A program made the translations under genes and the position numbers. A stretch of DNA of 64,000 nt, taken from NCBI GenBank assembly GCA_000004985.1, contig GG738915.1; one strand, 5' to 3'. The notes beneath the pieces were generated by a model. It was not told where the DNA came from. It made no database searches and saw only the letters and a list, made by a program, of their open reading frames with translations. Within the stretch, counting starts at the first letter, position 1; each line of letters starts with the position of its first letter. Positions 1 through 45,049 of this stretch are shown one piece after another. This DNA comes from Naegleria gruberi. Taxonomy: Eukaryota.

Positions 1-3000
1 ATTAAATATTTCATTTGCTACCTTGTTCGGAAGTGAAGTTGAGAGTGGAAAGACAATTGTCTTGTTGCAACAACCTTGCTTTTTTGGAGTGGTGAGATTA
101 ATTAAAAAGTATTGTTTGGGAAAGAGTTGGATTGATGTCATTACATTTGAGAATATTGATGAATTGTTGGAAAAGTTTAAAAATTTTCAAAGTGCTGCTT
201 CTGTAAATAGAATTGTAATTTATCTTTGCTCTAATTATCAACCAAATTCGGGAAATATTTTGAGTGAAGGGGAAAAATCTGACCTTTGTAATCTTGTTTC
301 GAAGAATATAATTGAAACGACCATCATTGAAGATAATCCATATGATTTTCTGTATGGCACCGAGAAGAGGCCTAGTACTCTTTTTGAAATACTTCCAGAG
401 AAAACAACTTTAATTGGCGGATTTTCCAAGATTCTTGCTCCAGGAATTCGTGTTGGTTATCTGATTACAAGAAATCAATCATTCAGTGGAAGATTGTACA
501 GAGAGAAGATTGATCAGGACTTGTTTACTTCTACACTGAGTCAGCAAGTTTGTGCCAATGCTTTGCAAGATGTATCGTACCTGTCAGAGTGGAGAGCGTT
601 CGTTCAAAAGAGGGTTCAATGTACTGTTAAATTATTAGAAGAAATATTTGGTGAGGAAAAGAGGAGTGGAAAGATTGAATGGACTAATATTGAAAGTGGA
701 ATTTTTGTCTATTTGAGGTTTTTCAATTCCAATCACGAAGGAGTTGCAAGTATCCAAAAATTACTTGAAATCTCCAAGAATGATTTTGAGCTAGAGTTAG
801 AACCAAGTGGATACTGCTACTTGGATGGATGCTCGAGATTGGAGACTCGCATTAATATTATGCTTTGCGAGAGTGAAGATATTTTAAGAGAGGGCCTGGA
901 AAGATTAAAGATTGCCTATCACAAGTGGACCATCTCTCCAAATGAAACAACCAGCATTCGTTCTATAAGCACTGAAGAAGAAAAACCTAATAAGCAAATA
1001 CTCAAGGTTGTTATCACCTCTGGAGGAACTGCTGTTCCAATCGATTCAGTCAGATATATCACTAACAGCTCTACAGGCACAACAGGAGCTTTAATTGCCG
1101 AGGAATTTGTAAAGAGGGGCCATTTAGTTTATTACATTCACAGCAAGAATGGAAAAGTTCCTTCGAAGAAATATCCAAACTTGATTTTACTTCCTTACTT
1201 TACCTTTGATGAGTATCTTGAAGTTCTAAAACAAACCACCATTGAATGTAATCCTGACGTCGTCATTTTGAGTGCAGCTGTTAGTGATTATGGTGTACAA
1301 CAAGCTCATGAGGGAAAGATTAGCTCTGATCTCGACACTCAAACCCTTACACTTGTCAAGTTGCCAAAGATTATTTCCTTGGTGAAACACTGGAATCCTA
1401 AAGTATTTCTTGTCGGATTCAAATTGCTTGCTGGAGCCACTACTGAAACACTTATTGATACAGCTTACAAATCTGGTATTAGAAATCATTGTAACCTCAC
1501 TGTTGCTAACACAACCACAAAGGATGACATGTCTAATTTCGGAAAGAGAATTATTACCATCATTACACCAGAGAAGAGCGTCATTTCCACATCAGTGAGA
1601 GATCTACCAAATGCATTGACTACTCATGTCGAAAAGAGAGTCTCCCACAAACACTACAAAACAATTGTTATTCCCTCTGATCACAAGGATTACATTAATT
1701 ATGAAAAAGTTATGGGCGAATCCATTCAGACCATGTTCTCCAACATCCAAAAAGGATATACTTTGGGATTATTTGATAGCTATTTTAAGGATGAAACAAT
1801 TTCAGATATGAATTCACATTTTGGATTTGTAGCAATGCGTGCCCCAGAACCATATAGTGGCTTCTTGATTACTTCCAGAGGAAGTGATAAAAGTCAACCA
1901 AGTATTAAGGATATTACCTACATTTCCAAAGTTGATTTCCAAGCAAGAACTTTGCATGTTCATTCAACTCATAGACAAAAGGCCTCTCTCAATGCTAATG
2001 TTGCTGGATGGTTATTTGAGAATAGACCGTTGGTTAATTTGATTTTACATGCTCACATCTTCCCAAGTTGTGATAACAAGACTGATTTTGACTATTCACC
2101 AGGTACTCAAGAGGATGTCGATGCTGTAGCTAGAAAAATGTCAAACAATGAAAAGATTGTGGAAATACCAGATCATGGTGTCATTTCAGTCTCTAACAGT
2201 TCAAGAATTGAAGAGGCTATTGATGCACTCGGAGAAGGACACGCCTATTTCAAGTTTGCTCACCTCTACGATATGATCTATGCAAGATTCCAAAAGTCTA
2301 CAGATTTAATCGATATCTTGGATAGAGAATTTGAAAATAAGGAAAAGGTCAAGGTCTTGGATTTGGCTTGTGGAACTGGTGAAGTTTCACGACTCATGTA
2401 CGAGAGAGGACTCAAGAATATTACATTCGCCGATCAGAGTGACAAAATGTTGAACTATGCCCACAAAAAATTCATTGATAATTTTGGAGAGGAGATTTCT
2501 AATGGAATTTCAAAACATGTTACTTCCATGCAAGATTTGAAAGTCAATAATGAAAAATTCGACCTGATTGTCATAAGACAGGCCATAAATTATGCAATGA
2601 ATTTGGAAGGATTGGAAATGATTGTTAAGAATTGCTATGAGCATTTAAATGATGGTGGAAAATTAATTTTCAACACTACAAACTTTAAATTGGATCAGGA
2701 AGGTAAATTTGCCAAGTTGAGGGAATTGAATTATGTTGCCACAGATGGACATGTTGGTATTGCTTCCACTTCAAGAAATGAGCAAGTTCCCTTCGATGTC
2801 TACATTAGGGAAGGTAACTTGTTGTATAGAGTGGATTCTGATAAGGGTGAGAGAAAGGAAATTCGAATGTTGGTTCACGCTCAACATTGCGTTGTCGAGA
2901 GAGTCATTGCAGAAAGTGGTGATAACTTTATATTTGATAGACATGTTCTCTTTGATCTCAACAAATTTGGCATGTTCACTCAACAGGAAATCACCACTGA

Positions 3001-3115
3001 ATTACTCAATGCTCAATTCAAACATGTGAAATGTCTTGGAAAGGGTCTAATTGAAATCAATGAGGAAAATTCTAACACCTCACCTTCCCTCTACTTTGTT
3101 GCCACTAAAAATTAA
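1..3115 (+). CDS. 5'-truncated multidomain protein: class I/II aminotransferase (ARO8/AADAT/KAT-like, C-terminal part) + phosphopantothenoylcysteine synthetase-like (CoaB/DFP) domain + class II aldolase/adducin-like domain + class I SAM-dependent methyltransferase domain
   Basis: One stop-free frame (frame 2) runs from the window start to the TAA ending at 3115; chance is negligible in AT-rich DNA. The track ORF 23..3115 begins at TTG, and the frame is open back to nt 2, so the 5' end lies outside the window. Aminotransferase domain, about nt 1-950: PLP-lysine motif GGFSKILAPGIRVGYL at nt ~416-460, with an AADAT/ARO8-like C-lobe after it. PPCS-like domain, about nt 1000-1700: KVVITSGGTAVPIDSVRYITNSSTGTTGALIAEEF and VVILSAAVSDY. 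Class II aldolase-like domain, about nt 1800-2240: GFLITSRG, NLILHAHIFP and EIPDHGVISVS, which match the Zn-His triad pattern of FucA/MtnB. Methyltransferase domain, about nt 2260-3112: motif I VLDLACGTG, acidic FADQSD, FDLIVI and LNDGGKLIF. Confidence 0.8.
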   Translation, partial: LNISFATLFGSEVESGKTIVLLQQPCFFGVVRLIKKYCLGKSWIDVITFENIDELLEKFKNFQSAASVNRIVIYLCSNYQPNSGNILSEGEKSDLCNLVSKNIIETTIIEDNPYDFLYGTEKRPSTLFEILPEKTTLIGGFSKILAPGIRVGYLITRNQSFSGRLYREKIDQDLFTSTLSQQVCANALQDVSYLSEWRAFVQKRVQCTVKLLEEIFGEEKRSGKIEWTNIESGIFVYLRFFNSNHEGVASIQKLLEISKNDFELELEPSGYCYLDGCSRLETRINIMLCESEDILREGLERLKIAYHKWTISPNETTSIRSISTEEEKPNKQILKVVITSGGTAVPIDSVRYITNSSTGTTGALIAEEFVKRGHLVYYIHSKNGKVPSKKYPNLILLPYFTFDEYLEVLKQTTIECNPDVVILSAAVSDYGVQQAHEGKISSDLDTQTLTLVKLPKIISLVKHWNPKVFLVGFKLLAGATTETLIDTAYKSGIRNHCNLTVANTTTKDDMSNFGKRIITIITPEKSVISTSVRDLPNALTTHVEKRVSHKHYKTIVIPSDHKDYINYEKVMGESIQTMFSNIQKGYTLGLFDSYFKDETISDMNSHFGFVAMRAPEPYSGFLITSRGSDKSQPSIKDITYISKVDFQARTLHVHSTHRQKASLNANVAGWLFENRPLVNLILHAHIFPSCDNKTDFDYSPGTQEDVDAVARKMSNNEKIVEIPDHGVISVSNSSRIEEAIDALGEGHAYFKFAHLYDMIYARFQKSTDLIDILDREFENKEKVKVLDLACGTGEVSRLMYERGLKNITFADQSDKMLNYAHKKFIDNFGEEISNGISKHVTSMQDLKVNNEKFDLIVIRQAINYAMNLEGLEMIVKNCYEHLNDGGKLIFNTTNFKLDQEGKFAKLRELNYVATDGHVGIASTSRNEQVPFDVYIREGNLLYRVDSDKGERKEIRMLVHAQHCVVERVIAESGDNFIFDRHVLFDLNKFGMFTQQEITTELLNAQFKHVKCLGKGLIEINEENSNTSPSLYFVATKN

Positions 3116-3268: not shown

Positions 3269-4560
3269 ATGAGTGGAAAATCAATTTATTCGGGAGAAAT
3301 TGAGGATGGCTGTTTTCATGGCAAAGGAACCATGATCTATGCCAATCAAGAGAAATATGAAGTGAGTATATTGTTGTTCTACTCATTCATCATAACTATT
3401 ATAACTATTGATTATTAATATAATTTATCTTAATGCTTGTATTGCTTAGGGAGATTGGGTGAAAGGAAAAAAGCATGGTGTAGGAGCCTTTACCTATTCC
3501 GATGGTTCTTATTATGAAGGTAAGGAAATTTCTTCACCATCATCAATGCTTATTATTACATCAAATTATTATATTAAATAGGCGAATGGATAAATGATCA
3601 AATTAATGGAAAAGGAACATTCCTCTACGCCAATGGAAATCGATATGTTGGAGAGTGGGCCGATTCAGTAATTAGTGGACGAGGCGTTCTGTACTATTCC
3701 GATGGTGATCGATATGATGGAGAATTTAAGGAAGGAAGAATGAATGGTGAGGGAATTTATTGTTATGCTGAGGGAGATCGATATGAAGGATCGTTTGTGG
3801 ATGATCAAAGACATGGAAAGGGAATAATGAGTTATGCTGGAGAGAATGGATCAATCTTTGAACGATATGAAGGTAGAGTAGATGAATTCAATTCATGAAA
3901 CTAACCATGTTGATTTTCTAATAAGGCGATTGGGCATTTGGTAAAATGGAAGGCATTGGAAAGTACCTATATAGTGATGGAAGTATTTACGAGGGAGAGT
4001 GGAAAGATGGCAAAATGAATGGACAGGGTCTATATAAATTTCAAAATGGTAATAGATATGAAGGCGAGTTTGTTAATGATCAAAAGCATGGTAAGGGTAT
4101 TCTGAGGTATGCCAATGGAGAGGTCTATGAAGGAAGCTGGAAAACTGATAAGCCACATGGAATGGGTACACTGACCTACTCTCACGGTGACAAGTATGTT
4201 GGAGAATTTGTCAATGCCAAGAAACATGGAAAGGGATCACTGGTCTATAGAAATGGTGACATTTATGATGGAGAGTGGAAGAATGATCATGCCAATGGTT
4301 ATGGGGTTTTGGAGTATGCCAATGGATCGAGCTACGAGGGAAACTTTGTGGATGATAAGAAACATGGTCAGGCAATTGTTAGAAGTTCAGATGGAAGTAT
4401 TTTTGAGGGAACGTACGAGAATGGAAGAAAGGAAGGAGAAGGTGTTTTAACATTGCAAGATGGATCTGTATATAAGGGTGTTTGGAAAGATGGTCTAATT
4501 GTTGGTATGGGTTATTTTATACCTTCAGCTCAATCAATTTGGAGTAGTCCAGATGTGTAG
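3269..4560 (+). CDS. MORN-repeat protein, 4 exons
   Basis: Exons are 3269..3361, 3450..3519, 3582..3872 and 3926..4560 (TAG). The introns are 88, 62 and 53 nt, with donors GTGAGT, GTAAGG and GTAGAG and acceptors TTAG, ATAG and TAAG. Phases are consistent across all junctions. The spliced product is a continuous run of 23-residue MORN units of the form YxGxWxxGKxHGxGxxxYxNGDxYEGE. The track ORF 3946..4560 is only the last exon. Confidence 0.85.
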
Positions 4561-5443: not shown

Positions 5444-6946
5444 ATGGTCCTCAAGAATTTAATACCCTTCTTTAAGAGTGATAATAGCAACAATGATTCA
5501 CCTCCTCCCAACTCACCTACAACAACTATTCCACCAACAACTCAAATCTATCAGCCACCACCAACTCCAGAAAATAGACAACGAGATAATGATCAAATTG
5601 CAGCACTTGCATTGAGTCCAAGAAATCAACAAACTCAAAGACACTTTCGTTCTCCATCAATTTCCATTCCAACCACAAACAGCAACAATCAACAGCAACA
5701 ACCAACAAGTCCAACCAACACTTCTCCAACTACTAACAATACACGAAACAGAGCAATTAGTTCTCCTTTTTCATTCACCAGAAAGAGAGGAACCAGCAAT
5801 GTTTCGAATGGAAGTAATAACGGCAGTACAAGTCCTAGAGGCATTAATGGTGGTGCTTCATCTCCTCGTAATAGCCCTCAACAACCATCATCTCCAAGAA
5901 ACTTGGTGAGAGAACCAACAAGAGAAGAAAGAAGAAAGCAATTATTTAAAGAATTTGAAATGAAGAAAGTTGTCATTTATTCGAATTGTAAACGTTTGAG
6001 AGCTTTACTTGATGTTTTGATTGAAAGAGCTAAACCACATCAAGTTCAGAATGTTTCCTATGTTTTGGCACAAATGTCAGTTGTCGAAACGACTGGTTTA
6101 CCTCCAACCACTGAAAATGATCTTAAAGTTGTAAAGAGCGAATTGAATTCGATTAATCTGGAAATTTTCAGATTATCCTTGTTGATTTCTGAAAGCTACA
6201 AACAAGAAGTTTTACATCTGACAGGTGCCTCAACAATACATGACACGCGTTCACCAACAAGCATTGAAGATGAACAATTATTTGGAAATGTCAGCTGTGA
6301 ATCTGTCATTTTGAAAATAATTGGTAGAGAATTATCAGATCTTGAAAGAGATTTAGAAAGAATGCATCGTAGATGTAGAGGAAATAAGAAGAAACCTATT
6401 GAACAACCTATCCAACCTAAACGAAACAATTCCTTATTTGGAAGAAGAAGAGGAGCTTCTGCAATTGAAAGGCCAAGTAGTATGGTTCTTGGAAATCAAG
6501 ATTCAAAGAGAAGAAACTCTATGGAGTTTTATAGATCTTCAATAATTGATGAACTTGGTCAATCAGTGATGGAAAAAGTTATTGAGCGAGTTCAAAACAG
6601 TCAATTTAGAACTGTCACTAAAGAATTGCATATTGAACAGGGAATTTTAATGTTAATAGAGAAAAGATATGAAGAATTTGTGGATAAAATCAATAGATGT
6701 GACATTGACATTTATAATCCTGTCAGAATGTCAGATTTGAAATCTGAAACATTCTGGACAGATTTCCTCACGAAAAAGATGGCATTCACAGAGAATGAAT
6801 ATCAAAGTGCTCTTCAAAGTTTCTTAATTTCCAAGGAAACTGAAAATAAGAATCAAGAAGGTTCCTCGTCAATGGAAAATCAACTTTCGAATAGTAACTT
6901 TCAGATAGAGAATCGTTCTGAAGAAATTGACTTGTCTGTACAATAA
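5444..6946 (+). CDS. Hypothetical protein (500 aa); N-terminal S/T/P/N/Q-rich low-complexity region, C-terminal globular region of unknown function
   Basis: Long ORF with an ATG at 5444 and a TAA ending at 6946. No recognisable catalytic motifs. The composition is protein-like, with a basic/Ser-rich linker. Confidence 0.7.
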   Translation: MVLKNLIPFFKSDNSNNDSPPPNSPTTTIPPTTQIYQPPPTPENRQRDNDQIAALALSPRNQQTQRHFRSPSISIPTTNSNNQQQQPTSPTNTSPTTNNTRNRAISSPFSFTRKRGTSNVSNGSNNGSTSPRGINGGASSPRNSPQQPSSPRNLVREPTREERRKQLFKEFEMKKVVIYSNCKRLRALLDVLIERAKPHQVQNVSYVLAQMSVVETTGLPPTTENDLKVVKSELNSINLEIFRLSLLISESYKQEVLHLTGASTIHDTRSPTSIEDEQLFGNVSCESVILKIIGRELSDLERDLERMHRRCRGNKKKPIEQPIQPKRNNSLFGRRRGASAIERPSSMVLGNQDSKRRNSMEFYRSSIIDELGQSVMEKVIERVQNSQFRTVTKELHIEQGILMLIEKRYEEFVDKINRCDIDIYNPVRMSDLKSETFWTDFLTKKMAFTENEYQSALQSFLISKETENKNQEGSSSMENQLSNSNFQIENRSEEIDLSVQ

Positions 6947-13281: not shown

Positions 13282-15529
13282 TTATTTGGTGTTTGGAGTA
13301 TCAACAAAATCCCAACGTGAGCAGTCAACAACCAATGACTGTGCCAATAATAATCTCATTTTACAAATCCTATCGTCTGGATCAATGCTAGCAACTTGTT
13401 CTAGTAGTTGCTCTGCAGAAATAGGATCAAACCTATCTCGGCAAAATAAGTGGGAAATAGCTTTCTCAAACATTTCTTTAGTTGACCGTTTCTTACAATT
13501 TTCAAAAGGTATAATTTCCATAATTTCTACGTAATTTCTCTTACCCACTACACAGATTTTCCCAATCGATCGACAACTCCCTCCCTCTCCCAGAAAAATC
13601 GGTGAACAAGAATCAGTTACACTTTTCGATACTAGAATCTTGGCATCGTAATATTTCGTCAGAGATTCTAATCGAGCAGATAAATTGACTGCATCCCCAA
13701 CTATGGTTGGATCCATTCTCTTTGACTCTCCAATCAAGCCAACTGCACATCGTCCTCTGACAATTCCACATCCTATTGAAATAGGACCAACGATTGGTGA
13801 CACACTCTCATTAAAAACCAGAACACAATTTTGAATTTCAATCGATGCTTTCAGTGCATGGCCTGGCTCTGTAAATAGGGCAATAAATCCATCACCTTAA
13901 TAAAGTTCGTTCATAAATTTCTAAATTCTCGAATGAACATACCCATATATTTATCAATATATCCACAATTTCTCCTCACAATCGGACCAACCAAAGCCAA
14001 ATATCGATTCAATAATTTGAACATTTGATCAGTTGGTAGCCTCTCACTCATTGAAGTATAATTTCGAATATCAACAAACATAATATCCAACTCCTTCTCA
14101 AAGAAATCACCATGATGCAAATCTGTCACCTTCTGCTTATTGATAATGGACATGAATTCTCGTGGCACGAATTTGTAAACCATATCCTCTTGGAGACGCA
14201 ACATTTTCTTCCAAGGTCCTAGAATAGTTTTCGAAAATAGCAACGCCACCAATGCTGCCACAAGAACCACAATTACTATAACAATGGTAAATGCAATTAA
14301 TGAATCGGTAGCATTCAAACCAATTTGATTCGAATAGTCTAATAAGACCAATCTCATTCGATCTTCCACAATCCCTAAAAGAATTCATGCACAGAGTCAT
14401 GTTAAAAAACCATTCTTCAAGTGTATACTTTGTTAAATTTTGATAATTATCCAAGACATAATCTTCCATACTCTGACAGATATTTTGCTGAGTATCATTG
14501 AGAATATTTGTAAGGAATTCTGTGTAAATTTCATTGGATGCCTGAAGAGAGAATAAGTGTCGAACCAAGATTCCCTATAATACATTTAAAGATTTTGGTA
14601 AAAGTTGTTTTTCTTACACCACAATATTCAAAATTACTTACTTTAATGACTGCTTCTTTGAATGAATCAATCGAAGCTTGAGACAAACTTCCATTCATAA
14701 ATCCAAATGTTCCATAAATTCTTCTAATTCCTCGATATTCCCTAGCTGCGGAAAGTAAGTTGAATGAATTGTGAATTATTGCAAAAGTTGGATCCAAACT
14801 TTGACTTGTTACAACTCTAATCATATCATTGATCAAAGAATCCCAATCGTTGATGTATTGGATTGTTGGTAAAAAGGTTTCGTTCGTAACATTCTCCACT
14901 TTCATTCTCCACTCTCCAACACCTTTCGAATAACCAATGACCTTTCCCAAATAATCCTCAAACAAATACCACGTCCTTTTCCACTGTTCATTAATCAAAA
15001 TATCGTTTGGGCTTACCGAAAGTGCGAAGAACCTTTCGATAGCATTGTCAGTTCGATTTCTTGCTTCAGCTAATTCAATTGTATACTGCCTCTTATGAGA
15101 ACCTAGATAAAGAGATGTGATTCCTCTTTCATTTTGCAAACAATCACCAAGTTCTGAGAGATGCATTGTCACTCTTGATAGTTTTTTAATCTCATTCGCA
15201 TGGTTCAAGTTGACCGCAGCAGAATTAATCAGTAAGGCACCAAATACTGCCATAGGAATCAAGCAAAATGCAATAATGAGGGCCAATTTAATGATGAGAG
15301 GTATTTTCTCCAAGATTCTTATTGGAAAGAAACTATTAAACAAGGATTTGTTCATTATGGATTGAGAAGTTATTTTGGATTTGTGTCCTTTCTCAGTGAT
15401 TGGAACTGTGGTTGATGGTTCCTCGAAGGTATCTGGTACAGTACCAGATATACGTTTTGCATGCAATGTTCTTTCTGCATTGTGTTCTACTTGTTGTTGT
15501 TGGGGCGTTTCAATATTCGAAACCTCCAT
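13282..15529 (-). CDS. Receptor-type class III adenylyl/guanylyl cyclase: N-terminal cytosolic tail, TM1, about 260-aa extracellular sensor domain, TM2, cyclase catalytic domain; 4 exons
   Basis: Model in plus-strand coordinates: E1 14642..15529 (ATG at 15527-15529); intron 14575..14641; E2 14472..14574; intron 14375..14471; E3 13943..14374; intron 13896..13942; E4 13282..13895. The E1/E2 and E3/E4 junctions (GTAAGT and GTATGT donors) are solid. The E2/E3 junction (donor GTATGG, acceptor TTTTAG) is needed to get from the sensor-domain frame into the frame that encodes TM2, IAFTIVIVIVVLVAALVALLF. It is phase-consistent but tentative. Cyclase motifs: DIMFVDIRNYTSMSE, CGYIDKYMG, GDGFIALF, GPISIGCGIVRGRCAVGLIG and GDAVNLSARLES. 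Total is about 678 aa. Confidence 0.75.
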
Positions 15530-18006: not shown

Positions 18007-19719
18007 ATGGTTTGTTTACCTTCCTTATTAAATCAACCATTTGAAAAAAAATCAATGAATCCCTTCCTAGTGCTCGATTTCCACTTATCGGATGAGAATT
18101 TGTTCTTCAATCCTAACAATTTTCAGCCGGTAACCTTTGCAAATAACTGTACTTTTATTCCACAATTACAACCTCTTCAGACTCAGCCTCAATATATTAC
18201 TTCAACAACAGCATCAATAACTAATCACAATACTTCTATTAATCAACATCCTAATAATATCCAACAACAACAACTCCATCACAACAAGAATGGTTTCAAC
18301 CAACAACAAATACCTTCCTCATTCCAGAACGACTCTGTCAGTAGTTCCACTTCCTGCGATCCGGCCACTACACATGGAGGAAGCCGAAGCAACCACAACT
18401 CTGTTACAACAAATCAAACTGCTCTTGAGAATGTAGCAGAAAATGGCACATCTCAACCTTCAGAAGAGAACGCTAACTGTGATAATGCAGATGGAACCAT
18501 TGCTCCAATATCTTGTGATGCATGTCGTTCTAACCATCGTCGATGTGATCGTATCAGACCTTCATGTCAAGCTTGTAAAATAAGAGGAATCCCATGTAAC
18601 TATAGTATGAACTTTAAGAGAAGAGCCAAGTTTATTAACAATAACAGATTGAAGGATGAAGATGTTGCAATTTTGGATGTTTATTACACAGAGTCTGGAT
18701 ATCACATGGTTTCAAGGACAGAGTTGGAACAATTCTTGTTAGAATCTTATAAGTGTAACGGCTCTTACACAACACAAGATATGAAAGAGATGATAGCCCT
18801 GTATTATTCAATTAAAGCAACCTGTGAGTGTCAAATGGGTCAAATTGACAAGGCAGAGTTATCCGCAAAGCAGGCAAAGGAGTATCTTTCCAAAGTATTT
18901 GATTGCTATACCAGTATGAAGGTTGCTGGAACCTATCTCAACATGTGCTTTTATGAACTGTGGTTTGAGAGGTTACACACAGCCAAGTTTTACTTTCAAA
19001 CTCTACTCTTCTTTAAAGAAGCTCTTGAGAACTCAAAGGAAGAAACAAAGAATTCCATTAGAGAGCATCTAATAATTACAATCACCTACTTGGAGGAGAC
19101 CATATTTAACATTCAGGATAAGAAGAACCTTCATGAGAGAACCTTCGACAGGTTTTTGCTGACACTCCCAACACTCTTCTCCTATTTGAAAACTTCAGAT
19201 TGTATGTTTGGTAGTGACTGGGATTATTATTTGAAGAATCCACACCTAATTGACTCTACGAATTGTGTACAGGTTAATACACTCCTTCAAAATCTATTGA
19301 GAGAATGTAAGAGGTATGAACAGAATAATTTTGGAGGAAATCCAGTTCTGGATTTGTACTATGATGTCATGGAGAGTGGTTGTACATTGGCACTGTTGTC
19401 AAAAACTAAGGAAATGAATTCAATGATGGATTATGTCTTGGAGAGAAGTGCTACTACTATTGTAAATTCGATTAATAACCCTAAATTTGAATCAATGCCT
19501 TTTGAGATTCTTCTCCACATTTCATTTGCTGCAGAGTATCATTTGAAAAAGGTGAGAGAGGGCATATTTATGGGTAGTATGAATAATTGTGATTATATTG
19601 AAATGTTGAGAACTGAATTAAGAGCCTACCAAACCCTACAATCAAGATACAAGATTGCCAAGACTTACTTTTATGGTGGAATATTCAAGAAATTGGATGA
19701 CTATTTCAATAATCAATAA
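18007..19719 (+). CDS. Paralog B: fungal-type Zn(II)2Cys6 binuclear-cluster (GAL4-like) putative transcription factor
   Basis: 570-aa ORF. The Zn2Cys6 motif is CDACRSNHRRCDRIRPSCQACKIRGIPC (about nt 18517-18600), followed by a basic linker. The region after that is homologous to paralog A. The N-terminal part is Q/N-rich. Confidence 0.75.
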   Translation: MVCLPSLLNQPFEKKSMNPFLVLDFHLSDENLFFNPNNFQPVTFANNCTFIPQLQPLQTQPQYITSTTASITNHNTSINQHPNNIQQQQLHHNKNGFNQQQIPSSFQNDSVSSSTSCDPATTHGGSRSNHNSVTTNQTALENVAENGTSQPSEENANCDNADGTIAPISCDACRSNHRRCDRIRPSCQACKIRGIPCNYSMNFKRRAKFINNNRLKDEDVAILDVYYTESGYHMVSRTELEQFLLESYKCNGSYTTQDMKEMIALYYSIKATCECQMGQIDKAELSAKQAKEYLSKVFDCYTSMKVAGTYLNMCFYELWFERLHTAKFYFQTLLFFKEALENSKEETKNSIREHLIITITYLEETIFNIQDKKNLHERTFDRFLLTLPTLFSYLKTSDCMFGSDWDYYLKNPHLIDSTNCVQVNTLLQNLLRECKRYEQNNFGGNPVLDLYYDVMESGCTLALLSKTKEMNSMMDYVLERSATTIVNSINNPKFESMPFEILLHISFAAEYHLKKVREGIFMGSMNNCDYIEMLRTELRAYQTLQSRYKIAKTYFYGGIFKKLDDYFNNQ

Positions 19720-31985: not shown

Positions 31986-34900
31986 ATGAGAGAAACAAAG
32001 AGATCCCCATCCGCTGCTTCTGCCCTTGATGAGAGTGCAACGGTGCAGGGACTTAGTAGATTCAAACACTTTCATAGTGCAAGTGCTCCCGAATCTTTAG
32101 GAGTAGATAAACTTGAGGTAAGTGAATTCAAAACGAGGAAGTAACCAACAAGCTCTCTTATAGTACAAACCTAAGAATACATACAACGTTAGACCAAAAA
32201 CTACAATACAACCTCAAAAATTAAAGATACCTAAGGAATTACAACAATTTAATCATTTAGACCCATCTAGAAACACAAGTACAAAGAAGAGGTAAGAATA
32301 TCATAACTGAAATCAATTATTAAAAAATGATTTAATTAAACAGAGAAACTAGTACTACAACAACAAAAAGAGCATCAGCACAAGAAAAATCAAGAAAAAC
32401 ATTGGAAGAAAGACCACCAAAACAAGCCAAATATACTACCAGTGTCAGTAGATTGTCTGAATTGAACTCTTTGAATGTTAGTGCTAGAATCGGAGCCCTC
32501 AAACAAATGGATGTTGAAGAAGGAACAATTGATGTAGCTAGTTACCCAAGACTTTTAATTATTAACAAGGAATTTTCGGAAGAGGAAAAGGATATCATCA
32601 TGAGTGGGTATGTATTAATAAGAGGAATTTAATTAATAATTATGAATTGAACAGACAAGAGATTGAAAGCAAGAGCAAATTTCTACCATTAGAATTGTTT
32701 GATGACGAAGAAATATTTGAAAAATTCACTATTGAAGATCTTCTTTCGAATAGCTACATTGTACAGTCTAAGTTTTATACTGGCGCCAAATCAGCTTATG
32801 AAAAATCTTATAAGGTTTGTTTCATATTATTACTAGTGATCTAATCAAAAAACAGTGGGCTCGTTGCAGAGTTCTTGAATATAATCCTGATGAAAGAAGT
32901 TTCCTTATTGAATGGTTAGATTCTCCAAACACAACTGGATATGAAATTACAACAACTGATGAAAACAATGACTCTCCAACCACTACTAATGGCAGAAAAC
33001 AAAAATGGGTAAAAAGATTGAATTTATTAGTTCATGGAGATGAAACTTTTGAATTGAGAATAAGATTTGCACAAATGAGAAGAAAAAAGTTTGAAGAGAA
33101 AATGTTTTATTATCTTCAAATTGACAAGACTATTACTGATGACTTGATAGATATTACCCCTTTTGAAAAACAAATTTATGAAAAAATTTTGAAGCTTGTT
33201 GCAAATGAATCCCAATTCCTTTCTAGGCATGTTCCAGTCATTGAAAAATATGTTGATGAAGCAAAAGAGCATTACAAAATTTCAATGAAAGAGGCTATAT
33301 TTTTGTATTATCTGAACAGTAGAGAAGAATATGAAAAGTATGAAAAATATTTATGGTGCAAAGAAGAGCTAAGGAAAAATAATATGACAGCACCATGTTC
33401 TGGTGTTATTGAGGTACCAGCCTATAACTATCAAGCCATTCACGATATTATTGAACAAAATATCTTTTATACTCACCTTGATTTGATAACAGCAATGCAT
33501 AATATTCACTCTCAATTATTTATTTTGCTTAAAAGCTTAAAGGAAGATGGAAAGAGTATGGACTTGATTACAACACAAAAATGTGATACTCCTTGTGAGT
33601 TAGGATCATTTTTGGAGCTCCAAAGAGATACATTACAATTATCCATGAAAAGAATTAAGGAAGATTGGTGCCAAAAAGTTATTTCGATAGTGCAAAATGA
33701 TCTTGATAGATTTTTCAACTTTTTCGAAGATGATATTGAAAGATTCGAAAGCTCTAGAATGAAGAAGTTCTTGAGATTGACCAATTTCGTTCTTTCAGCT
33801 CAGTTAAGAGATTATGTTTTTGATGAACTTCACAAGTTGAGAGACTTTATAATACCTTATAGATACAGAGGATCGGATCATTTTGATGCCAATGAAGTTT
33901 CTGGATTTGAACCTTTATTTATTATCAAGATTGTGGAGAAAATTGAAAATGGAGAATCTAAGATTGCATTCGATCCTCCACTCGAATCTGTATTAGATGG
34001 CTTACGACAAATATTTTATGGAGTGCTGGAGGAAACCAATTTTATTCCAGGTATAGGAGAGACTCTCTTCCCATTATTGACTCTTAAGCCAGAACAATAT
34101 TGTATAAATAACTTAGAACTAAGATTAGAAAAAGACACAAAAGGTTTATGGAAAGATATTCAAGAAGTAATTACTTCCAACTTTAGAGAACCAGAAATGT
34201 TGCTCTCCTTATATAAGGGATATGAACATTGCTTAAAGTTGGATCCAGTCGCGTTTGCTACAGAATTTTATAATGAACATGTTGGCAAAACAGAAATGTC
34301 AAAACTTCTTTCAATCTTTAGAGAAGAATTGGCAAGACTTAAAAGTGATTCAGAAGAAGTGTATAACATTTCAACTGATAATGTCAATTTCAACTTATTG
34401 CGAGTAGATTGCAGTGGTATCAAAAACTCACTATATTTGAGAACCGATGGTACTGCAAAAGAGTTGATGAAATTAATATCAAAATGGAGTACTGAAGAGA
34501 GTAGTAAAATTACTCAATCTTTCCGAGATGTATATAGCAAAGTTCAAATCATACCTCAAACTGCTGAAGAACTGGACTCTTTAAAGAAGTACTTAACAGA
34601 TTGCACAAAGGAAATTGAAAGATTACAATCTCAATTCGCAACAGTCAAATCAAGTGTCCATTTACTCTCAGATTTTTCATTCAACCTCGACATGGATGAT
34701 TTTACAGTATTTGTAGATACTCATTCATGGCCAAAGAAGGTTTATGGACTTCTTGAGGATAGTACTATTAGACTTGAAGAAGACAAGAGAAAATTCATGG
34801 ATGAATTACAAAGAGATATCAATAATCTTCTCAGCAACTTGGATTTATATGAAAAGATTATTGAACGATTTGCTGTTTTCGATGATTTAGAAAAGACAGA

Positions 34901-37900
34901 CCAATACTATGAAAAGGTAAAGGATATGGAATCTAAATTGGAGGAAGCAAAGAAAAATTCCGAATTGTATAATAATCGTGAAAGAATGTTTAATATGAAC
35001 ACAACAGAATTTTCCAAACTGAAGGACTTGGAGAAGAACTTTAAACCTTACTTTGACTTATGGAGAATTGCTTATGAAAAGGCACAAAACTTTCCAAAAT
35101 GGAATGAAGGCACATTCATGAATTTGGATGCCAAGTTTATTGATGAATCATTAAGTATGTGGCAATCTACATTGAAAAATTTAGAAAAGAACTTGCAACC
35201 AAAGGACGAAACTGCAAGAATTATTACAAGACAAGTGAAGAAGGAGGTTGTAGCATTCTTACTTCACATGCCACTTATCAATGCCTTGAGAAAGGATGGT
35301 CTTAGACAAAGACATTGGCAGAAAATTGCAAAACTTCCACTTGAATTTGGAAAATCCACAGCCCAATTGGATATTGAAAGTATTAATATCATGAACTTGG
35401 GAGACTTTACAAAGATTGGTTTCGAAGAAAAACCAATTTTAGAAAAGATTATTGATATTTCTACATTGGCCGAGAAAGAAGCAGAAATTTCAAAGAACCT
35501 CGAAAAAATGTACTCTGCTTGGAAGAATGTCAATTTCCATCTTGAGAAATACGGTATTACATACAAACTTGTTGAATTGGATGAATTACAAGTCCTTCTC
35601 GATGAACAAATTGTTTTAACTCAAGGTATGAGAGCTTCTCCTTACGTAAAGGAACTTGAGACTGAAGTTATTGCTTGGGAAAACAAATTATTAGAAAGAC
35701 AAGATATAATGACCGAATGGATTAAGTGTCAAGTTGCTTACTTGTATTTGGAACCAATCTTCAGTTCTCAAGATATATCAGCACAGCTTCCTGATGAAGC
35801 AACCAAATTCGGTATGGTTGACAAAATGTGGAAGAATGTTATGGAAGTTACCAATAAGGTCAAAGTTGTCGCTCAAGTTGTTTCTGATGAAAATATGAGA
35901 GATAACTTTGAAACAGCCAACAAGAGATTGGAGCAAATCCATTTTGGTTTGAAACAATATTTGGAAACCAAAAGAAGAGCCTTCCCAAGATTTTACTTTT
36001 TATCAGATGATGAATTGTTGGAAATCCTTTCTGAAACTAAGGATCCACTCAGAGTTCAACCCCACTTGAAAAAGTGTTTCGAAGGTATTGAAAGGTTAGA
36101 GTTTGACAAGGAAGGAAAAATCGTTGCCATGCTCAGTAAACAAGGTGAGCGTATTCCATTCCAAAAGCATGTAATACCAGCAGAAAAGAATGGCAGAGTT
36201 GAGTTGTGGTTGTTAGAAATTGAAAATGAAATGAAGGGTAGTTTGAGACACTCTATTGAACAATCCATCAATGCATATGCTGCTATTGCTGGTAATATTG
36301 ACAAGAGAGGTCAATGGATTCTTGCATGGCCTGGTCAAGTGGTATTGACTGTAAGTCAACTTTTCTGGACAAGAGAAGTAGAAGAATCTATCAAAGCACA
36401 AGGTGTTAAAGGAGTTCAAAGATATTACTCCAAGATGACCAAACAACAAAAATCTCTTATTGAACTTGTAAGAGGAGAAAATTTAACTGCTTTGCAAAGT
36501 ATCACACTTGGTGCAATGGTCGTTATTGATGTTCACGCAAGAGATGTTGTTGCTGGTTTGGTGAAAGAGGCAGTCGGAGATATTTCAGACTTTGAATGGC
36601 AAAGTCAGCTCAGATATTATTGGGAAGATGTTAAAGATATCAAGGATGGAAAGAATCAAAACCAAATTGTTGTTAGACAAGTTACTGCTGAAATTAACTA
36701 TGGATACGAATATTTGGGTAATCAAGAAAGACTTGTCATTACACCTCTTACTGACAGATGCTACAGAACACTTACAGGTGCTCTCCAATTATTTAAGGGC
36801 GGTGCTCCTGAGGGTCCTGCTGGTACAGGTAAAACTGAAACTACAAAAGATTTGGCTAAGGCTATCGCTAAACATTGTGTAGTTTACAACTGTTCAGATG
36901 ATCTTACCTATGAGTCTATGGCTCAATTCTTTAGAGGTTTGGCATCAAGTGGTGCTTGGTCATGTTTTGACGAATTTAACAGAATTGAATTGGATGTCCT
37001 TTCTGTTGTTGCCCAACAAATTCAAACTATCCAACTTGCTGTAGCTAGTAGAGCCACCAGATTCTTCTTTGAAAATATGGAAATTAACATGAATCCAACT
37101 TGTGCTATTTTCATTACAATGAATCCTGGTTATGCTGGAAGATCTGAACTTCCTGATAACTTGAAAGCTCTCTTCCGTCCAGTCGCTATGATGGTTCCTG
37201 ATTATGCCTTGATTGCAGAAATTTCATTGTTTTCTTATGGATTTTTGGAAGGTCGTAAACTGGCTAGAAAGATTGTTTCTACTTATAGATTATGTAGTGA
37301 ACAATTGTCATCCCAAGATCACTACGATTATGGTATGAGAGCTGTTAAAGCAGTATTGGTAAGAGCAGGTTCATTAAAGAGACAATTTCCAGATCTTAAC
37401 GAAGAACAACTCATGTTAAGAGCATTGAATGACGTAAATCTTCCAAAATTCGTTTCTGCTGATATCCCATTGTTCAACGGTATCATCAAGGATTTGTTCC
37501 CAACTACAGAACATCAAAAGGTTGACTACTCTGCTCTTGAAAACGCCCTTATTCAAACATGTGCTGAAATGAATCTTCAACCTGTTCCTTACTTTATTCA
37601 AAAGATTATCCAACTTTATGAAATGATTATTGTAAGACACGGTTTGATGCTTGTAGGTTTCCCAATGTCAGGTAAAACAGCTTCCTATATTGTTTTAAAG
37701 TCTGCTTTGGAGAAATTAGGAGAAAAGATCAATCTAAGAGTCTTATCACCAAAGGCAGTTTACGGTGGAAATCTATACGGTTATAGAGATACAAAGACCA
37801 AAGACTGGAAAGATGGTGTTCTTGCTCTTCACTTCCAAAAGTTGAGTACACTTGCAGAAAAGGAAAGAAAATGGCTCATGTGTGACGGTCCTGTTGATGC

Positions 37901-40900
37901 TATTTGGATCGAATCTATGAACACAGTTTTGGATGACAACAAGAAGCTTTGTTTAACATCTGGTCAAATTATCAAAATGGGTGAAAACATGAACATGATG
38001 TTTGAAGTCCAAGATTTAGCTGCTGCTTCGCCTGCAACAGTTTCCAGATGTGGTATGGTTTATTTGGAAGCCGAAAAGCTTGGTTCTTGGGAGCCTTACC
38101 TAGCAAGTTGGCTGAGCAGTAAGGAATTCCCTCAAGCTCTTAGAGAATCAAAAGATTTTGAAGAAGTGACAGAATTATTTAAAACATTATTCTCCACTTT
38201 CATTCCTCCTGCTATCAAAATTTTCAAGTCTCACTTTATGGCCAAAGCATATGTTAGAGTTAAAAGTGATGCCATGTTGGTGAATTCATTGATTAACATT
38301 TTGCAAAGCTTGATGGATGAATTTGCAGATCCAAAAGTGATCCAAAATTACATTAAGGACAAGTCAATTATTCTTGAATGCCTTTTCCAATTTGCTTTAA
38401 TTTGGTCAGTTGGTATTGTTTCTGTTGATAGAGTTAAATTTGATCAACTTTACAGAAACATGCTGGAAGAAAGGGCAAGAAATAAGGTCTACAAATTCCA
38501 AATACCAATGCCAGAAAAGCCAAACACACTCGTTTTCGACTTTGTGTTTGACAAGAAGAGTAGAAAATGGGTTGAATGGACTGCCTCAGAATATGCTCCT
38601 AAATTTGCTGTTTCACCAACAGAAGAATTTAGAAATATTATTGTCCCAACAATGGACACTATTAGATTCCAATTCATTCTTAAAACACTTCTCGACCACG
38701 GTAAGCAACCATTATTTGTTGGCCCAACAGGTACTGGTAAAAGTGAATATGTAAAACAATTTTTACTTAAACTTGGAGCTGGTTCAAGTGAAGAAAAGGA
38801 ACAAAATAACGAACCAAAGTCAAACTTCCTTCCTGCCTTTATCAATTTTTCAGCCACCACTACACCAAGTCTTATTCAAGATATTTTGGAATCCAAGCTC
38901 ACAAGAAGAAAGCAAGGATATATTGGTCCACCAATAGGAAAGAAGACAATTATTTTTGTCGATGACCTTAACTTGCCAACATTGGATGATTATGGTGCAC
39001 AACCAACCATTGAATTATTGAGAGAATGGCAAGACAGAGGAGGCTGGCATGAAAAATTCAGCAAGCAAGCAGCCTTTACACACGTAGTTGATGTATTGTT
39101 TGTTTGTGCTATGGGTCCTCCTGGAGGTGGTAGAAACGAAGTAACTCCAAGATTTATTCGTCACTTCAATGTTATTGGTCTTACCTCATTTGACAACCAA
39201 ACATTGACCACCATTTTCTCAGATATTATGGATTGGTTCCTCTCATCCAATAGCATTAATACTATCAGTAAGATTTTGGCTAGACAAATCGTTGTTGGAT
39301 CCATCAATTTATTTAATAATGTAATTGAGCAATTCAGACCAACACCAGAAAAATCTCACTATACTTTTAACTTGAGAGATTTATCAAAGATTTTCCAAGG
39401 TGTTTGCAGTGTTGGTCCAAGACTTGATGGATCAGAATTGGAGAAGGTATCTCTAGTCAAGATTTGGGCCCATGAGGCCACAAGAGTTTTCCACGATAGA
39501 TTGATTAATGAGCAAGACAGAGAGAGTTTCTACCAATTACTTGATAAGGAACTTCAAATTGGTGAAATCAAATATATCATTGAAGAAACACCTTTTGACT
39601 ATAGAAATACTCTCTTCACTTCTTTAACTCATGATTCTTGCGAAAGATTCAAGGAAGTTGTCTTGAACAAGACCTCCAATAATCCAAAGGTTGCTGATAT
39701 TTCCAAACTACATAATATCTTGTCATCTAAATTGGAAATTTACAATGATTCACACTCAAAGATGGATCTTGTATTATTCAACTTTGCTATTGAACATATT
39801 GTTAGAATTGTAAGAATTATAACTCAACCTGGTGGTAATGCTCTCCTTATTGGTGTGGGTGGCAGTGGTAGACAAAGTTTAACCAAACTAGCTGCTTTTG
39901 CTGCTGAATACAAATTGTTTGGTATTCAATTAACAAGATCTTTCACTGTTTCTGAATGGAAAGATAAGATGAAAGAATTGTTGATTAGTGTTGGTGGTGC
40001 CAAGAAAACTCAAACTGTCTTTTTATTCAATGATAACCAAATCAAGTATCAAGAATTTTTAGAAGATATTAGCAGTATTCTTAACACTGGTGAAATTCCT
40101 AACCTTTTCGATAGAGATGAATATAAGGATATTTGTGAAAGTCTGAGAGCACATGCAAGAAATGAAAACAAAGGACAAACACCAGAAGAATTATACAACT
40201 TCTTTGTTGATAGATGTAAAGAATGTTTGCACATTGTTCTTTGCATGAGTCCAGTTGGTGAAAATTTGAGAAATTATTTGAGAATGTTCCCTTCATTGGT
40301 AAATTGTTGTAACATTGATTGGTTCAGCTCTTGGCCAGACCAAGCCCTTCATGCTGTAGCTCAAAAGTTTATCAAGAGCATTAACGAAGTAACAGATGAA
40401 GAATTGGATAATAATGTAGAAATACCAAAGGATGATGCATTCGAAAAAGATTTTGACAAGTATGTCGATATATGTGCCTACTTCCACAATAGTTCCACCG
40501 AGCTTTCTAAGCAATTCTTATTCAAGATGAAGAGACATAACTATGTTACACCAACAACTTATCTTGGTCTATTGAAGAACTTCTCCTCACTTGTAAAAGA
40601 AAAGAGAACCGAGTTGCAAACTTTGAGAGGAAAATTCGAGTTGGGTCTTCAAAGAATTGCTGAAACCGATAAGGATGTTAATGAAATGCAAAAAGAATTG
40701 GAAATTTTGCAACCAAACTTGATTGAACTTTCCAAACAAAATGAAGAATTATCCAAGAAGATTGAAATTGAATCTCAAAATGCAAACGAGAAGGCTAAAA
40801 AGATTGAAATTGAACAAGAAGAAATCAACGCACAAGTTGCTAAGAATGAACAAGACAAGGTATATTGTATGGAAGAATTAGCTCAGGCTGAACCAATTTG

Positions 40901-43900: not shown

Positions 43901-45049
43901 GAGGATGGTTACCAACTTTCACCTTCCGGTATTTACACTGTTCCAAATGGAGATAAGAAACATAGTGAATATATTCAAACAATCGAAAAATTCCCATCAA
44001 GCGAAACTCCAGAAGTATTTGGTTTGCACGAAAACGCTACCATTAGTAAGGATCAAACTGAGTCTAAACTAATGTTTGATGCATTACTTACCACTCAACA
44101 AAATAGTGCTCCTGAAACCAATGATGAAGATGACATTAATGAAAATTCTCATGAAACTGAAGTACTTTACGAATTAGCAGCAGATATCTTGACTAAACTC
44201 CCTGACAACTTTATTATTGAAGGAGATGGTGGCGCAGAGGCCAAGTTCAAGGTTGACTATCACGAAAGTATGAACACTGTATTTGTACAAGAGTTAATTA
44301 GATTTAACAAACTTTTGAATGCTATTAGAAACAGTCTTCAACAATTACAACTTGCATTGAAAGGTCTCACAGTCATGAGTAGTGATTTGGAACAATTGAG
44401 CAAGTCTCTTTCAAATGGTAAGGTACCTCTTGTATGGAGCAAGGCCAGTTATCCTTCTAGAAAACCTCTCAGAACATATATCCAAGATTTGATTAAGAGA
44501 ATTGAATTCTTTAATAATTGGTTTATTCATGGTAAACCATCAGTGTATTGGTTGAGTGGTTTCTACTTTACCCAATCATTCTTGACAGGTGTAAAGCAAA
44601 ACTTTGCCAGAAAGAATAAGATTGCTATTGACCAAATTGATTTTGAATTTGAAATTTTGGACAAGTACTATGAAGAAAACATTTCCTTGCCAGAACCAGA
44701 ATGTGGTTGCTATGTTTATGGATTGTTCTTGGAAGGTGCTGCTTGGGATAGAAAGAAGAAGTGTTTGACAGATCCAAGACCAAAACAATTGTTTGATGAA
44801 ATGCCAATAATTTGGTTCAAACCTGTAGATCGTAGTGTTGAACAAACAGAACCAACAAGTTCAGAGGTTAAAACCAAATCTAATACCTATGTTTCACCAC
44901 TCTACAGAACTAGTGAAAGAAGAGGTACCCTCACCACAACTGGTCACTCGACTAACTTTGTGATGAGTATCAAGTTGCCAATGGCCTCAGATAATAATGA
45001 AAAGTATTGGATTAAGAGAGGATGTGCCTTACTTTGCCAACTTGATTAA
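31986..45049 (+). CDS. Dynein heavy chain, about 4270 aa; class undetermined, with size and tail length suggesting an axonemal or IFT-type motor; 5 exons plus one apparent -1 frameshift
   Basis: The main exon is 32856..45049; this corresponds to track ORFs 32817..42575 and 42365..45049. AAA1 P-loop is GPAGTGKTETTKDLAKA and Walker B is SCFDEFNR. AAA2 is GFPMSGKTAS, AAA3 is GPTGTGKSEY and AAA4 is GVGGSGRQSL. The coiled-coil stalk, AAA5/6 and the C-terminal domain are present. The upstream exons E3 32344..32607 (donor GTATGT) and E4 32655..32814 (donor GTTTGT, 41-nt intron to acceptor AACAG at 32855) are phase-consistent. The TACTAG pseudo-acceptor at 32836 was rejected because it creates a stop. 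E1 31986..32117 (MRETKRSPSAAS...KLE|GTAAGT) and E2 32227..32291 are tentative. Around 42357-42365 the reading frame shifts by 1 nt inside an A-run (see findings). Confidence 0.8.

Follow-up and report, generated by a model that had tools for sequence, protein, structure and literature searches.

Consecutive enzymes of a pathway are joined in one chain in the bifunctional CoaBC (Dfp) proteins of coenzyme A (CoA) synthesis and in the fused enzymes of methionine salvage, which provide the closest described parallels to the protein reported here. CoaBC, however, joins only a decarboxylase and a ligase, and in the literature we found no described CoA or methionine-salvage enzyme with a set of aminotransferase, class II aldolase-like and methyltransferase domains. 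Such a set, together with a CoaB-type ligase, is encoded by NAEGRDRAFT_81838, the gene that opens a 64,000-nucleotide stretch (the window) of contig GG738915.1 from the heterolobosean Naegleria gruberi (assembly GCA_000004985.1). Its product is a genuine single polypeptide fusing four enzyme families, and on balance it is probably the Rosetta-stone fusion of a conserved four-gene cassette acting in a feeder or side branch of 4'-phosphopantothenoylcysteine/4'-phosphopantetheine metabolism, rather than in methionine salvage as had been suggested by an original prediction made from the letters of the window. The four domain families are already known, as is the protein itself, which is public as a hypothetical; what is new is that these families form a conserved combination linked to CoaBC. 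Literature searches by identifier, architecture and organism retrieved no description of the protein or of the cassette, in line with the original view that no described enzyme has this architecture.

Frame 2 of the plus strand remains open from base 2 of the window to the TAA at 3113-3115, a run of 1037 codons whose probability of being stop-free by chance is about 10^-34 at the base composition of the window (~35% G+C); the remaining five frames contain 39-112 stops each over the same stretch. The translation is identical to residues 82-1118 of the 1118-amino-acid (aa) protein XP_002670424.1 (UniRef D2VZL8), which is publicly annotated as 'hypothetical / methyltransferase domain-containing'. 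The window edge therefore cuts off only 81 residues of the aminotransferase N-terminus, which are present in the sequences P0036/P0001 (the latter on a 3.8-kb metagenome contig), and this part of the gene is free of introns. A 99%-identical copy of the 1118-aa open reading frame (ORF) stands on an independent metagenome contig. Thus the prediction of one stop-free frame encoding four normally separate enzymes, with an aminotransferase truncated by the window edge, was borne out for all four modules and for their order, residues 1-81 lying upstream. Their limits and principal motifs are collected in the table; residue numbers are those of the window translation unless marked as protein numbers.

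Modules and motifs of the NAEGRDRAFT_81838 reading frame in the window
Feature	Nucleotides	Residues	Strand	Basis
Pyridoxal phosphate (PLP) aminotransferase, class I/II, LysN/KAT-II/MocR-like subgroup, truncated by the window edge	2..928	protein 82-390	+	PDB and NCBIfam matches
PLP-lysine	428-430	K143 (protein K224)	+	
Aminotransferase-to-CoaB linker, S/T/E-rich, TISPNETTSIRSISTEEEKPNKQI	929..1000	~24 residues	+	read from sequence
CoaB/PPCS-type CTP-dependent carboxylate-amine ligase, DFP fold, through the QRVSxxHYKT junction	1001..1663	334-554	+	PF04127, PDB, residue mapping, Foldseek
Class II aldolase/adducin-fold metal domain	1664..2236	~555-745	+	profile versus PDB, AF2, Foldseek, invariant columns
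His triad, first His	2048-2050	H683 (protein H764)	+	alignment
His triad, second His	2054-2056	H685 (protein H766)	+	alignment
His triad, third His	2174-2176	H725 (protein H806)	+	alignment
Class I S-adenosylmethionine (SAM)-dependent methyltransferase, 4-beta-strand cap	2237..3112	746-1037	+	Pfam, profile versus PDB, fold matches
Motif I, VLDLACGTGE	2354-2383		+	
RQAINY, family-specific motif	2567-2599		+	
TAA stop codon of the gene	3113..3115		+	read from sequence

A search of 5.8 billion proteins returned 35 relatives, and an exhaustive search of 1.84 billion cluster representatives with a profile of the aldolase-like domain returned about 68 clusters at E<=1e-30. Proteins of about 1000-1300 aa with the full order aminotransferase (AT), CoaB (DFP), aldolase-like domain (Ald) and methyltransferase (MT) occur in N. 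fowleri, in Mastigamoeba balamuthi, in the diplonemid Namystynia karyoxenos, where the protein is the ORF of a single Trinity transcript, and on a bacteria-like contig which also carries two-component and LigD genes. The commonest architecture is a DFP-Ald-MT protein of about 650 aa, found among others in Woesearchaeota. Other arrangements include a ~420-aa DFP-Ald protein whose gene overlaps that of a separate methyltransferase downstream (L037), the order Ald-MT-AT (P0074), and a permuted form at L006:4086-9175, in which five activities are distributed over two genes, X-Ald-MT-CoaC (P0079) and, directly after it, AT-CoaB. The L006 contig additionally has small ORFs with helix-turn-helix and DUF5681 domains and may be a mobile element. 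In phage-like contigs a DFP-Ald protein carries a different C-terminal domain; in P0034 (L004:9887-11713), encoded directly after a DNA methylase, the last ~130 residues, in place of the methyltransferase, appear GNAT-like by eye, and the contig contains many small unknown ORFs along with Phage_ABA_S, PhoH and Metallophos domains. Among viral and defence-related collections, a scan of IMG/VR recovered no relative, BFVD gave only methyltransferase-domain matches and no viral protein with the four-module architecture, PADLOC gave generic methyltransferase-domain matches and no link to a defence system, and PHROGs gave weak matches to families of unknown function and no link to a known phage function. 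The protein was also absent from animals in these searches. The prediction had expected the same domain order in other protists; it was found there, but the expectation of a protist-only distribution proved too narrow, as the cassette is mainly an operon of DPANN archaea.

Each of the Naegleria modules, including the aminotransferase, finds its best match outside Naegleria within the cassette family, implying that the cassette was inherited as a unit. In a neighbour-joining tree of the Ald+MT region, which carries no support values, the eukaryotic sequences stand close together beside a DPANN clade; the four-domain proteins P0003 and P0005 nest elsewhere in this unsupported tree, which suggests that the aminotransferase was fused more than once. 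The N. fowleri orthologue (P0002; 1296 aa, 54% identical) is interrupted by several long low-complexity insertions, of which the aldolase-like domain has one of ~22 residues and the aminotransferase some that are large. An AF2 model of the three-domain core (713 residues) forms one compact body with a mean predicted local distance difference test score (pLDDT) of 86.8 and a predicted TM-score (pTM) of 0.85, although its residues 1-5, where the model begins within the aminotransferase-CoaB linker, fall below a pLDDT of 50. No solved structure covering more than one module emerged from the fold search (TMq <=0.29). The junctions between CoaB and Ald and between Ald and MT are direct and consist of conserved sequence rather than spacers, as the prediction of short linkers free of low complexity had it; the aminotransferase-CoaB linker is rich in S, T and E.

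That the frame is a chimaera of assembly or annotation, or the read-through of genes expressed separately, could be argued from N. lovaniensis, where the locus is annotated as two adjacent models, and from the many archaea in which the aminotransferase is a separate gene. Against such an artefact stand the uninterrupted frame (P ~1e-34), the same 1118-aa ORF on the independent metagenome contig, the recurrence of the order in N. fowleri, Mastigamoeba, the Namystynia transcript and the bacteria-like contig, the conserved junctions and the compact core model. It is hence excluded for practical purposes, and the claim of a real fusion holds, the same order recurring in four eukaryotic lineages and on prokaryote-like contigs. 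As regards N. lovaniensis, the adjacent models C9374_004708 (P0015, AT+CoaB) and C9374_004707 (P0042, Ald+MT) reflect a true split of the gene or else an error in the models.

The CoaB module matches PF04127 over residues 334-510 (E 1.5e-35, 123.2 bits against a cut-off of 22), and its best solved relative is the CoaB-type protein 2gk4 of S. pneumoniae (E 1.6e-31), followed by the human, yeast, Bacillus and E. coli phosphopantothenoylcysteine synthetases (PPCS). Foldseek aligned it to 2gk4 and E. coli PPCS (1u7z) with TMt values of 0.78-0.80. Residues R206, N210, S212, G214, D279 and K289 of E. coli correspond to R351, N355, S357, G359, D429 and K439; the E. coli Dfp sequence used for this mapping reproduces the published residue numbering. 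With PPCS/CoaB proteins (the C-terminal half of E. coli Dfp, 2gk4, TIGR02114/PRK06732) the module thus shares the DFP fold, the Gly-rich ITSGGT...R..TN.S.G motif, the Asp of AAV(S/A)DY and the Lys of GK. In part of the DPANN loci CoaB adjoins CoaC, an arrangement recalling canonical CoaBC; unlike canonical CoaB, the fused one is joined C-terminally to the aldolase-like domain through a conserved QRVSxxHYxT junction.

The aldolase-like module by itself falls short of the Pfam threshold for PF00596 (E 0.024, 15 bits against 22.2), so that its assignment required support from a profile, an AF2 model and a fold search. Several homologues do exceed the cut-off (P0033, 62.7 bits; P0053, 45 bits; the Ald gene of L015, 36.8 bits), and a 26-sequence family profile retrieved class II aldolases from the PDB at E ~1e-8 (MtnB-like aq_1979, FucA, AraD), the best being aq_1979 (2irp, E 1.2e-8). 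The AF2 model of the domain is of high confidence (pLDDT 94.3, pTM 0.91), and all of its top-50 PDB matches in Foldseek (FucA, TqaM, NovR, POD, AraD and YgbL, with E down to 1.4e-8) belong to the class II aldolase/adducin superfamily. The HxH...H metal triad (LILHAHIFP ... DHG), already noticed in the prediction, is invariant in 34 homologues. The module accordingly shares fold and His-x-His...His triad with the superfamily, both with FucA, MtnB and AraD and with its decarboxylase/oxygenase members (OtnC/YgbL, NovR, TqaM, POD), but differs from them in being paired, in this family, with a methyltransferase rather than free-standing, in an altered phosphate pocket and in an Asn in the column of FucA Glu73 (SLNAN in place of the FucA PSSE motif). 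In FucA (1FUA) this Glu serves as acid/base and fourth metal ligand, and Ser, Thr and Asn make up the phosphate pocket. The positions of FucA N29, T43 and S72 are replaced, and an Arg/Lys set (R, K, K; ITxRGSxK and K..SLN), which includes the anion-binding motif ITxRGSxK, is invariant instead. At the Glu73 position the Asn of the main family is replaced by Asp in the phage-like relatives. The acidic motif PGTxED (PGTQED in N. gruberi) is conserved, its acidic residue lying ~19-20 residues past HxH, which we take to be the position of FucA Tyr113, MtnB Glu139 and AraD Asp120. The curated cut-offs of the MtnB and FucA models were never reached by the module: TIGR03328 (MtnB) is not listed for the window protein, and no sister protein exceeds 63 bits, the cut-off being 137. 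The contig of the aldolase-like sister protein P0156 is only 1.2 kb long and its context uninformative.

The methyltransferase passes Pfam thresholds over residues 785-890 (PF13649, E 4e-14, 53.5 bits against 27; PF08241, E 7e-12, 46.2 against 21.2; also PF13489). Its motifs VLDLACGTGE, FADQS and GGKLIFN are conserved in the family, in agreement with the prediction that motifs I, II and III are kept, and the acidic residue that follows motif I is present as well. Of the remaining Pfam expectations, PF04127 likewise stood, PF00596 remained below threshold, and PF00155 is on record for the full-length protein only, the Pfam hmmscan of the truncated fragment not listing it. Across its full length the methyltransferase family profile matched in the PDB the uncharacterised 1wzn, 1y8c and 3d2l as well as ToxA, CgnL, TylM1, DesVI, CalS10, GSMT, CypM, NmbA, PEAMT, PsmD and SeMT. 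In the classification of 4-beta-cap enzymes, PsmD and SeMT are indole C-methylases and the other named proteins of this list N-methylases (PMC12719100). Among NCBIfam models the daptide N-methyltransferase recurred most consistently, matching 11 of the 12 members, yet with 48 bits it stays well under its cut-off of 175. The module therefore resembles the 4-beta-cap methyltransferases of natural-product pathways in full-length profile and fold (the amino-sugar N,N-dimethyltransferases TylM1, DesVI and CalS10, GSMT, CypM, ToxA, NmbA and the daptide enzyme; PsmD and SeMT), but it reaches no curated threshold, is fused to a metal domain, and has its own RQAINY motif and polar cap, the invariant polar residues of which lie in three motifs (E.N, H.Q and D.N). 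TylM1, DesVI and the daptide methyltransferase methylate an amine installed by a partner aminotransferase, and the AT and MT of the cassette form the same pairing. An alternative precedent is the logic of beta-methyl amino acids, which combines an aminotransferase with a beta-carbon methyltransferase; by analogy, the enolate could come from the His3 metal domain, which is always adjacent. By homology N-methylation is the likelier outcome, with C-methylation also possible.

The aminotransferase (window residues 1-309) finds 1vp4, PH0207, LysN and KAT II/AADAT in the PDB at E 1e-15 to 1e-5, with values as low as 2.8e-18 among its PDB matches; the nearest solved proteins are TM1131, PH0207, MsAT, LysN and human KAT II/AADAT, and NCBIfam returned MocR-like and aminotransferase models. 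The SN(Y/F), EDNPYD, FSK (with the PLP-lysine) and TRxN motifs are kept across the four-domain proteins, and the Schiff-base Lys, pyridine-N Asp and alpha-carboxylate Arg of fold-type I PLP enzymes are conserved. These residues, along with an Asn, are shared with the LysN, KAT II (AADAT), ARO8-type and MocR-like class I aminotransferases that give the best PDB and NCBIfam matches, from which the Naegleria-family enzyme is distinguished by its length of ~390 residues, its short N-terminus and its fusion or operon linkage to CoaB. NCBIfam scores were comparable for relatives that do not transaminate, namely GntC, VioD and a CobD-type decarboxylase; a reaction other than transamination is therefore possible for this module.

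To define the context of the cassette, loci were mapped by ORF calling and BLAST against reference pieces, counting as a partner any module fused or within three genes. About 10 loci were recovered among 185,579 species-representative genomes, nearly all from DPANN archaea (Woesearchaeota, Nanoarchaeia/Nanoarchaeota and related metagenome-assembled genomes, MAGs), and 17 further loci came from metagenomes. Here the parts are neighbouring genes whose junctions typically overlap. Across the 17 non-redundant loci with an aldolase-like module, the methyltransferase and CoaB are each a partner in 16, the aminotransferase in 12 and a CoaC-type flavoprotein in 6, and either aminotransferase or CoaC is present in 15. 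In prokaryotes CoaC is adjacent or fused in 10 of 22 CoaB-family loci, and these flavoprotein partners are of the CoaC type, not UbiX. For example, L026 encodes on one strand an Amidohydro_2 protein, a 210-aa ORF, CoaC, the aminotransferase, a conserved 190-aa unknown and CoaB-Ald-MT, whereas L015 has Amidohydro_2 and a CoaC-CoaB protein followed by separate AT, Ald and MT genes. The latter CoaBC lies directly upstream of the aminotransferase and passes TIGR00521 (288.6 against 219.7 bits); in P0079 CoaC is fused to the cassette. In L013 and L029, Amidohydro_2 and CoaC are accompanied by a separately encoded CoaB from the same subfamily, and neither Ald nor MT is present; the L013 copy shares 53% identity with the fused CoaB. 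In L001 a PPAT-CoaE (PPAT-DPCK) fusion lies 1 kb from the cassette, and in four loci NUDIX genes precede the aminotransferase, their best match, below threshold, being to CoA pyrophosphatase.

Three further observations concern these archaeal loci. A mostly helical ORF of ~190 aa (L007:8015-8611, L010:1010-1660, L011:6199-6771, L026:9444-9995) has no Pfam or NCBIfam match, shows 53 invariant columns among its four sequences and is absent from the Naegleria fusion; as it invariably separates the aminotransferase (or CoaC) gene from that of CoaB-Ald-MT, it is probably a further, uncharacterised member of the pathway. An ORF of ~300 aa with a weak N-terminal AbrB/MazE-like match (L003:7582-8490 and L026:5421-6320, both on the minus strand; also L007, L011, L013, L015 and L016) lies, in at least six loci, immediately before the Amidohydro_2-CoaC operon and in divergent orientation, making it a candidate regulator of the operon. 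Finally, the cassette gene of one MAG (DATDWF01) appears broken across two contigs, probably through the assembly: Amidohydro_2-CoaC and residues 1-63 of CoaB close L016, and L008 starts at residue 49.

Based on the operons in which the DPANN cassette stands with CoaC or CoaBC, and sometimes with PPAT-DPCK or NUDIX genes, we propose that it serves a feeder or side branch of CoA metabolism. The aminotransferase would interconvert an alpha-amino acid and a 2-oxo acid; the aldolase-like domain would bind an anionic (phosphate or carboxylate) carbonyl substrate at its His3 metal site and enolise it; the tightly coupled methyltransferase would move a methyl group from SAM either to the amine made by the aminotransferase, the acceptor favoured by homology, or to the enolate carbon; and the CoaB module would activate a phosphopantothenate-like carboxylate as acyl-CMP and then ligate cysteine to it. 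The more general idea of a cysteine-ligating biosynthetic enzyme for a small molecule is plausible. The proposal builds on four modules with intact catalytic motifs, a compact core and the linkage of the genes; from these we infer in which order the steps run, what the substrates are and how the cassette is linked to CoA.

Several points weigh against this proposal, beginning with the fact that all of its chemistry is inferred. The CoaB module remains under every curated PPCS equivalog cut-off (148.2 bits against 265, 137.7 against 217.2 and 112.2 against 219.7). In P0041 of Namystynia karyoxenos and in the metagenomic P0004 the PPCS motifs are degenerate or deleted (the Asn of TN.S.G, the Asp of AAVxDY and the Lys of GK), so that ligation appears dispensable in some lineages. 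The motifs of the aminotransferase, aldolase-like and methyltransferase modules are intact in both proteins, which points to AT+Ald+MT as the constant functional core. Naegleria, Mastigamoeba and bacteria are expected to own a canonical PPCS already, and if they do, the function would lie apart from housekeeping CoA synthesis. Moreover, CoA contains no SAM-derived methyl group and no transaminated position, so it is not evident what the methyltransferase and the aminotransferase would contribute to a CoA branch. The PPAT-DPCK fusion was found in one locus only, NUDIX and Amidohydro_2 are assigned through matches that are weak or generic, and the neighbours of the gene in the Naegleria window, a MORN-repeat protein among them, are uninformative as to function.

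A more specific route has the aminotransferase, aldolase-like domain and methyltransferase build the pantoate skeleton in a folate-independent, SAM-dependent manner, which we regard as very unlikely. The aminotransferase would convert homoserine to 4-hydroxy-2-oxobutanoate, which would be enolised at the His3 metal site and methylated twice at C3 by the fused methyltransferase; the resulting ketopantoate would feed the attached PPCS/CoaC steps. PoK and PPS are missing from Nanoarchaeota and from some other archaea (PMC6650551), and such a route, if true, would fill a gap in the supply of CoaBC in Nanoarchaeota-type archaea and some protists. The reductase and beta-alanine ligase that it requires were not seen in the operon. 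Three related schemes were set aside by reasoning: synthesis of beta-alanine, as the aminotransferase is of the alpha and not the omega type; conversion of valine through ketoisovalerate to ketopantoate by aldol addition, which leaves no role for the methyltransferase; and a 4-phospho-2-oxobutanoate intermediate, whose enolate would eliminate phosphate.

Two rival functions bear on the proposed CoA-linked branch. In the main one, the CoaB and CoaC of the cassette might instead be recruited paralogues in a self-contained pathway of specialised metabolism unrelated to CoA supply, in which an N- or C-methylated acid derived from an amino acid would be coupled to cysteine and, where CoaC is present, converted to a cysteamine amide, giving a low-molecular-weight thiol, a metallophore or a similar product. 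This is possible but rather doubtful. It would account for the patchy distribution, resembling one produced by horizontal transfer (DPANN, a few bacteria-like contigs and three unrelated protist groups), for the rarity of the family (~68 clusters among 1.84 billion representatives), for a CoaB that scores under the PPCS equivalog cut-offs and whose motifs have degenerated in two lineages, and for the presence of the cassette in hosts expected to have PPCS already. The methyltransferase falls in the natural-product 4-beta-cap group together with NmbA, the N-methylase of the thiol bacillithiol; on one large contig the cassette lies beside P450, radical-SAM and AMP-binding/PP-binding genes; and the phage-like variant replaces the methyltransferase with another C-terminal domain. 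However, the partner CoaBC of L015 passes the NCBIfam equivalog threshold, and two CoaBC sets would be unexpected in the small genomes of DPANN archaea. The PPAT-DPCK fusion near the cassette in L001 and the same-subfamily CoaB standing alone with CoaC in L013 and L029 also speak for a connection to CoA, and no known metabolite fits.

The original prediction had linked the fusion to methionine salvage or sulfur-amino-acid metabolism, in which case the aldolase-like domain would act as MtnB (methylthioribulose-1-phosphate dehydratase) and the aminotransferase would convert 4-methylthio-2-oxobutanoate to methionine. Consistent with such a link, the best single PDB match of the aldolase-like profile is the MtnB-like aq_1979, the stand-alone sister proteins match MtnB models best, if below cut-off, the LysN/KAT II/ARO8-like subgroup includes enzymes of broad specificity, and the conserved acidic PGTxED occupies what we take to be the general-base position of MtnB and AraD. 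Yet the neighbourhoods of ~22 related loci contain no methionine-salvage gene (MtnA, K, C, D, N, P or W-type), the partners being CoaC, CoaBC, PPAT-DPCK, NUDIX and Amidohydro_2 instead, and the MtnB models never come to threshold. The classical pathway needs O2, whereas the hosts include anaerobic DPANN archaea and Mastigamoeba, and it offers no role for a CoaB ligase, CoaC or a methyltransferase. We therefore abandon the methionine-salvage link as highly improbable.

If the CoA-linked branch is correct, a conserved and wholly uncharacterised cassette is attached to the PPCS/PPCDC steps of CoA synthesis. This cassette of DPANN archaea has reached free-living protists of three unrelated groups, among them the genus to which the pathogen N. 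fowleri belongs, and it would also provide candidate genes for how reduced archaea without PoK and PPS feed CoaBC. In pairing a class II aldolase-fold metal site so constantly with a methyltransferase, the cassette could harbour a new composite catalytic unit; for biochemistry, Naegleria and Mastigamoeba offer a tractable version in a single polypeptide. The prokaryote-like character of the protein and its absence from animals in our searches make its N. fowleri orthologue of possible interest as a drug target, if it is essential.

In the Naegleria window itself no CoaC was seen next to the gene. A 204-aa ORF downstream of it (3946-4560) was considered as CoaC and rejected, since it is the MORN-repeat protein; the ORF at 5444-6943 is the neighbouring N. 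gruberi gene NAEGRDRAFT_81839, and the other neighbours are likewise unrelated. Farther along, the window contains two ORFs with domains of families unusual for a heterolobosean, a NIT (nitrate/nitrite-sensing) domain at 14531-15526 on the minus strand and a 'fungal' Zn2Cys6 binuclear-cluster domain at 18007-19716 on the plus strand, as well as a very long plus-strand ORF of 3252 aa at 32817-42575, which overlaps the start of an 894-aa ORF at 42365-45049.

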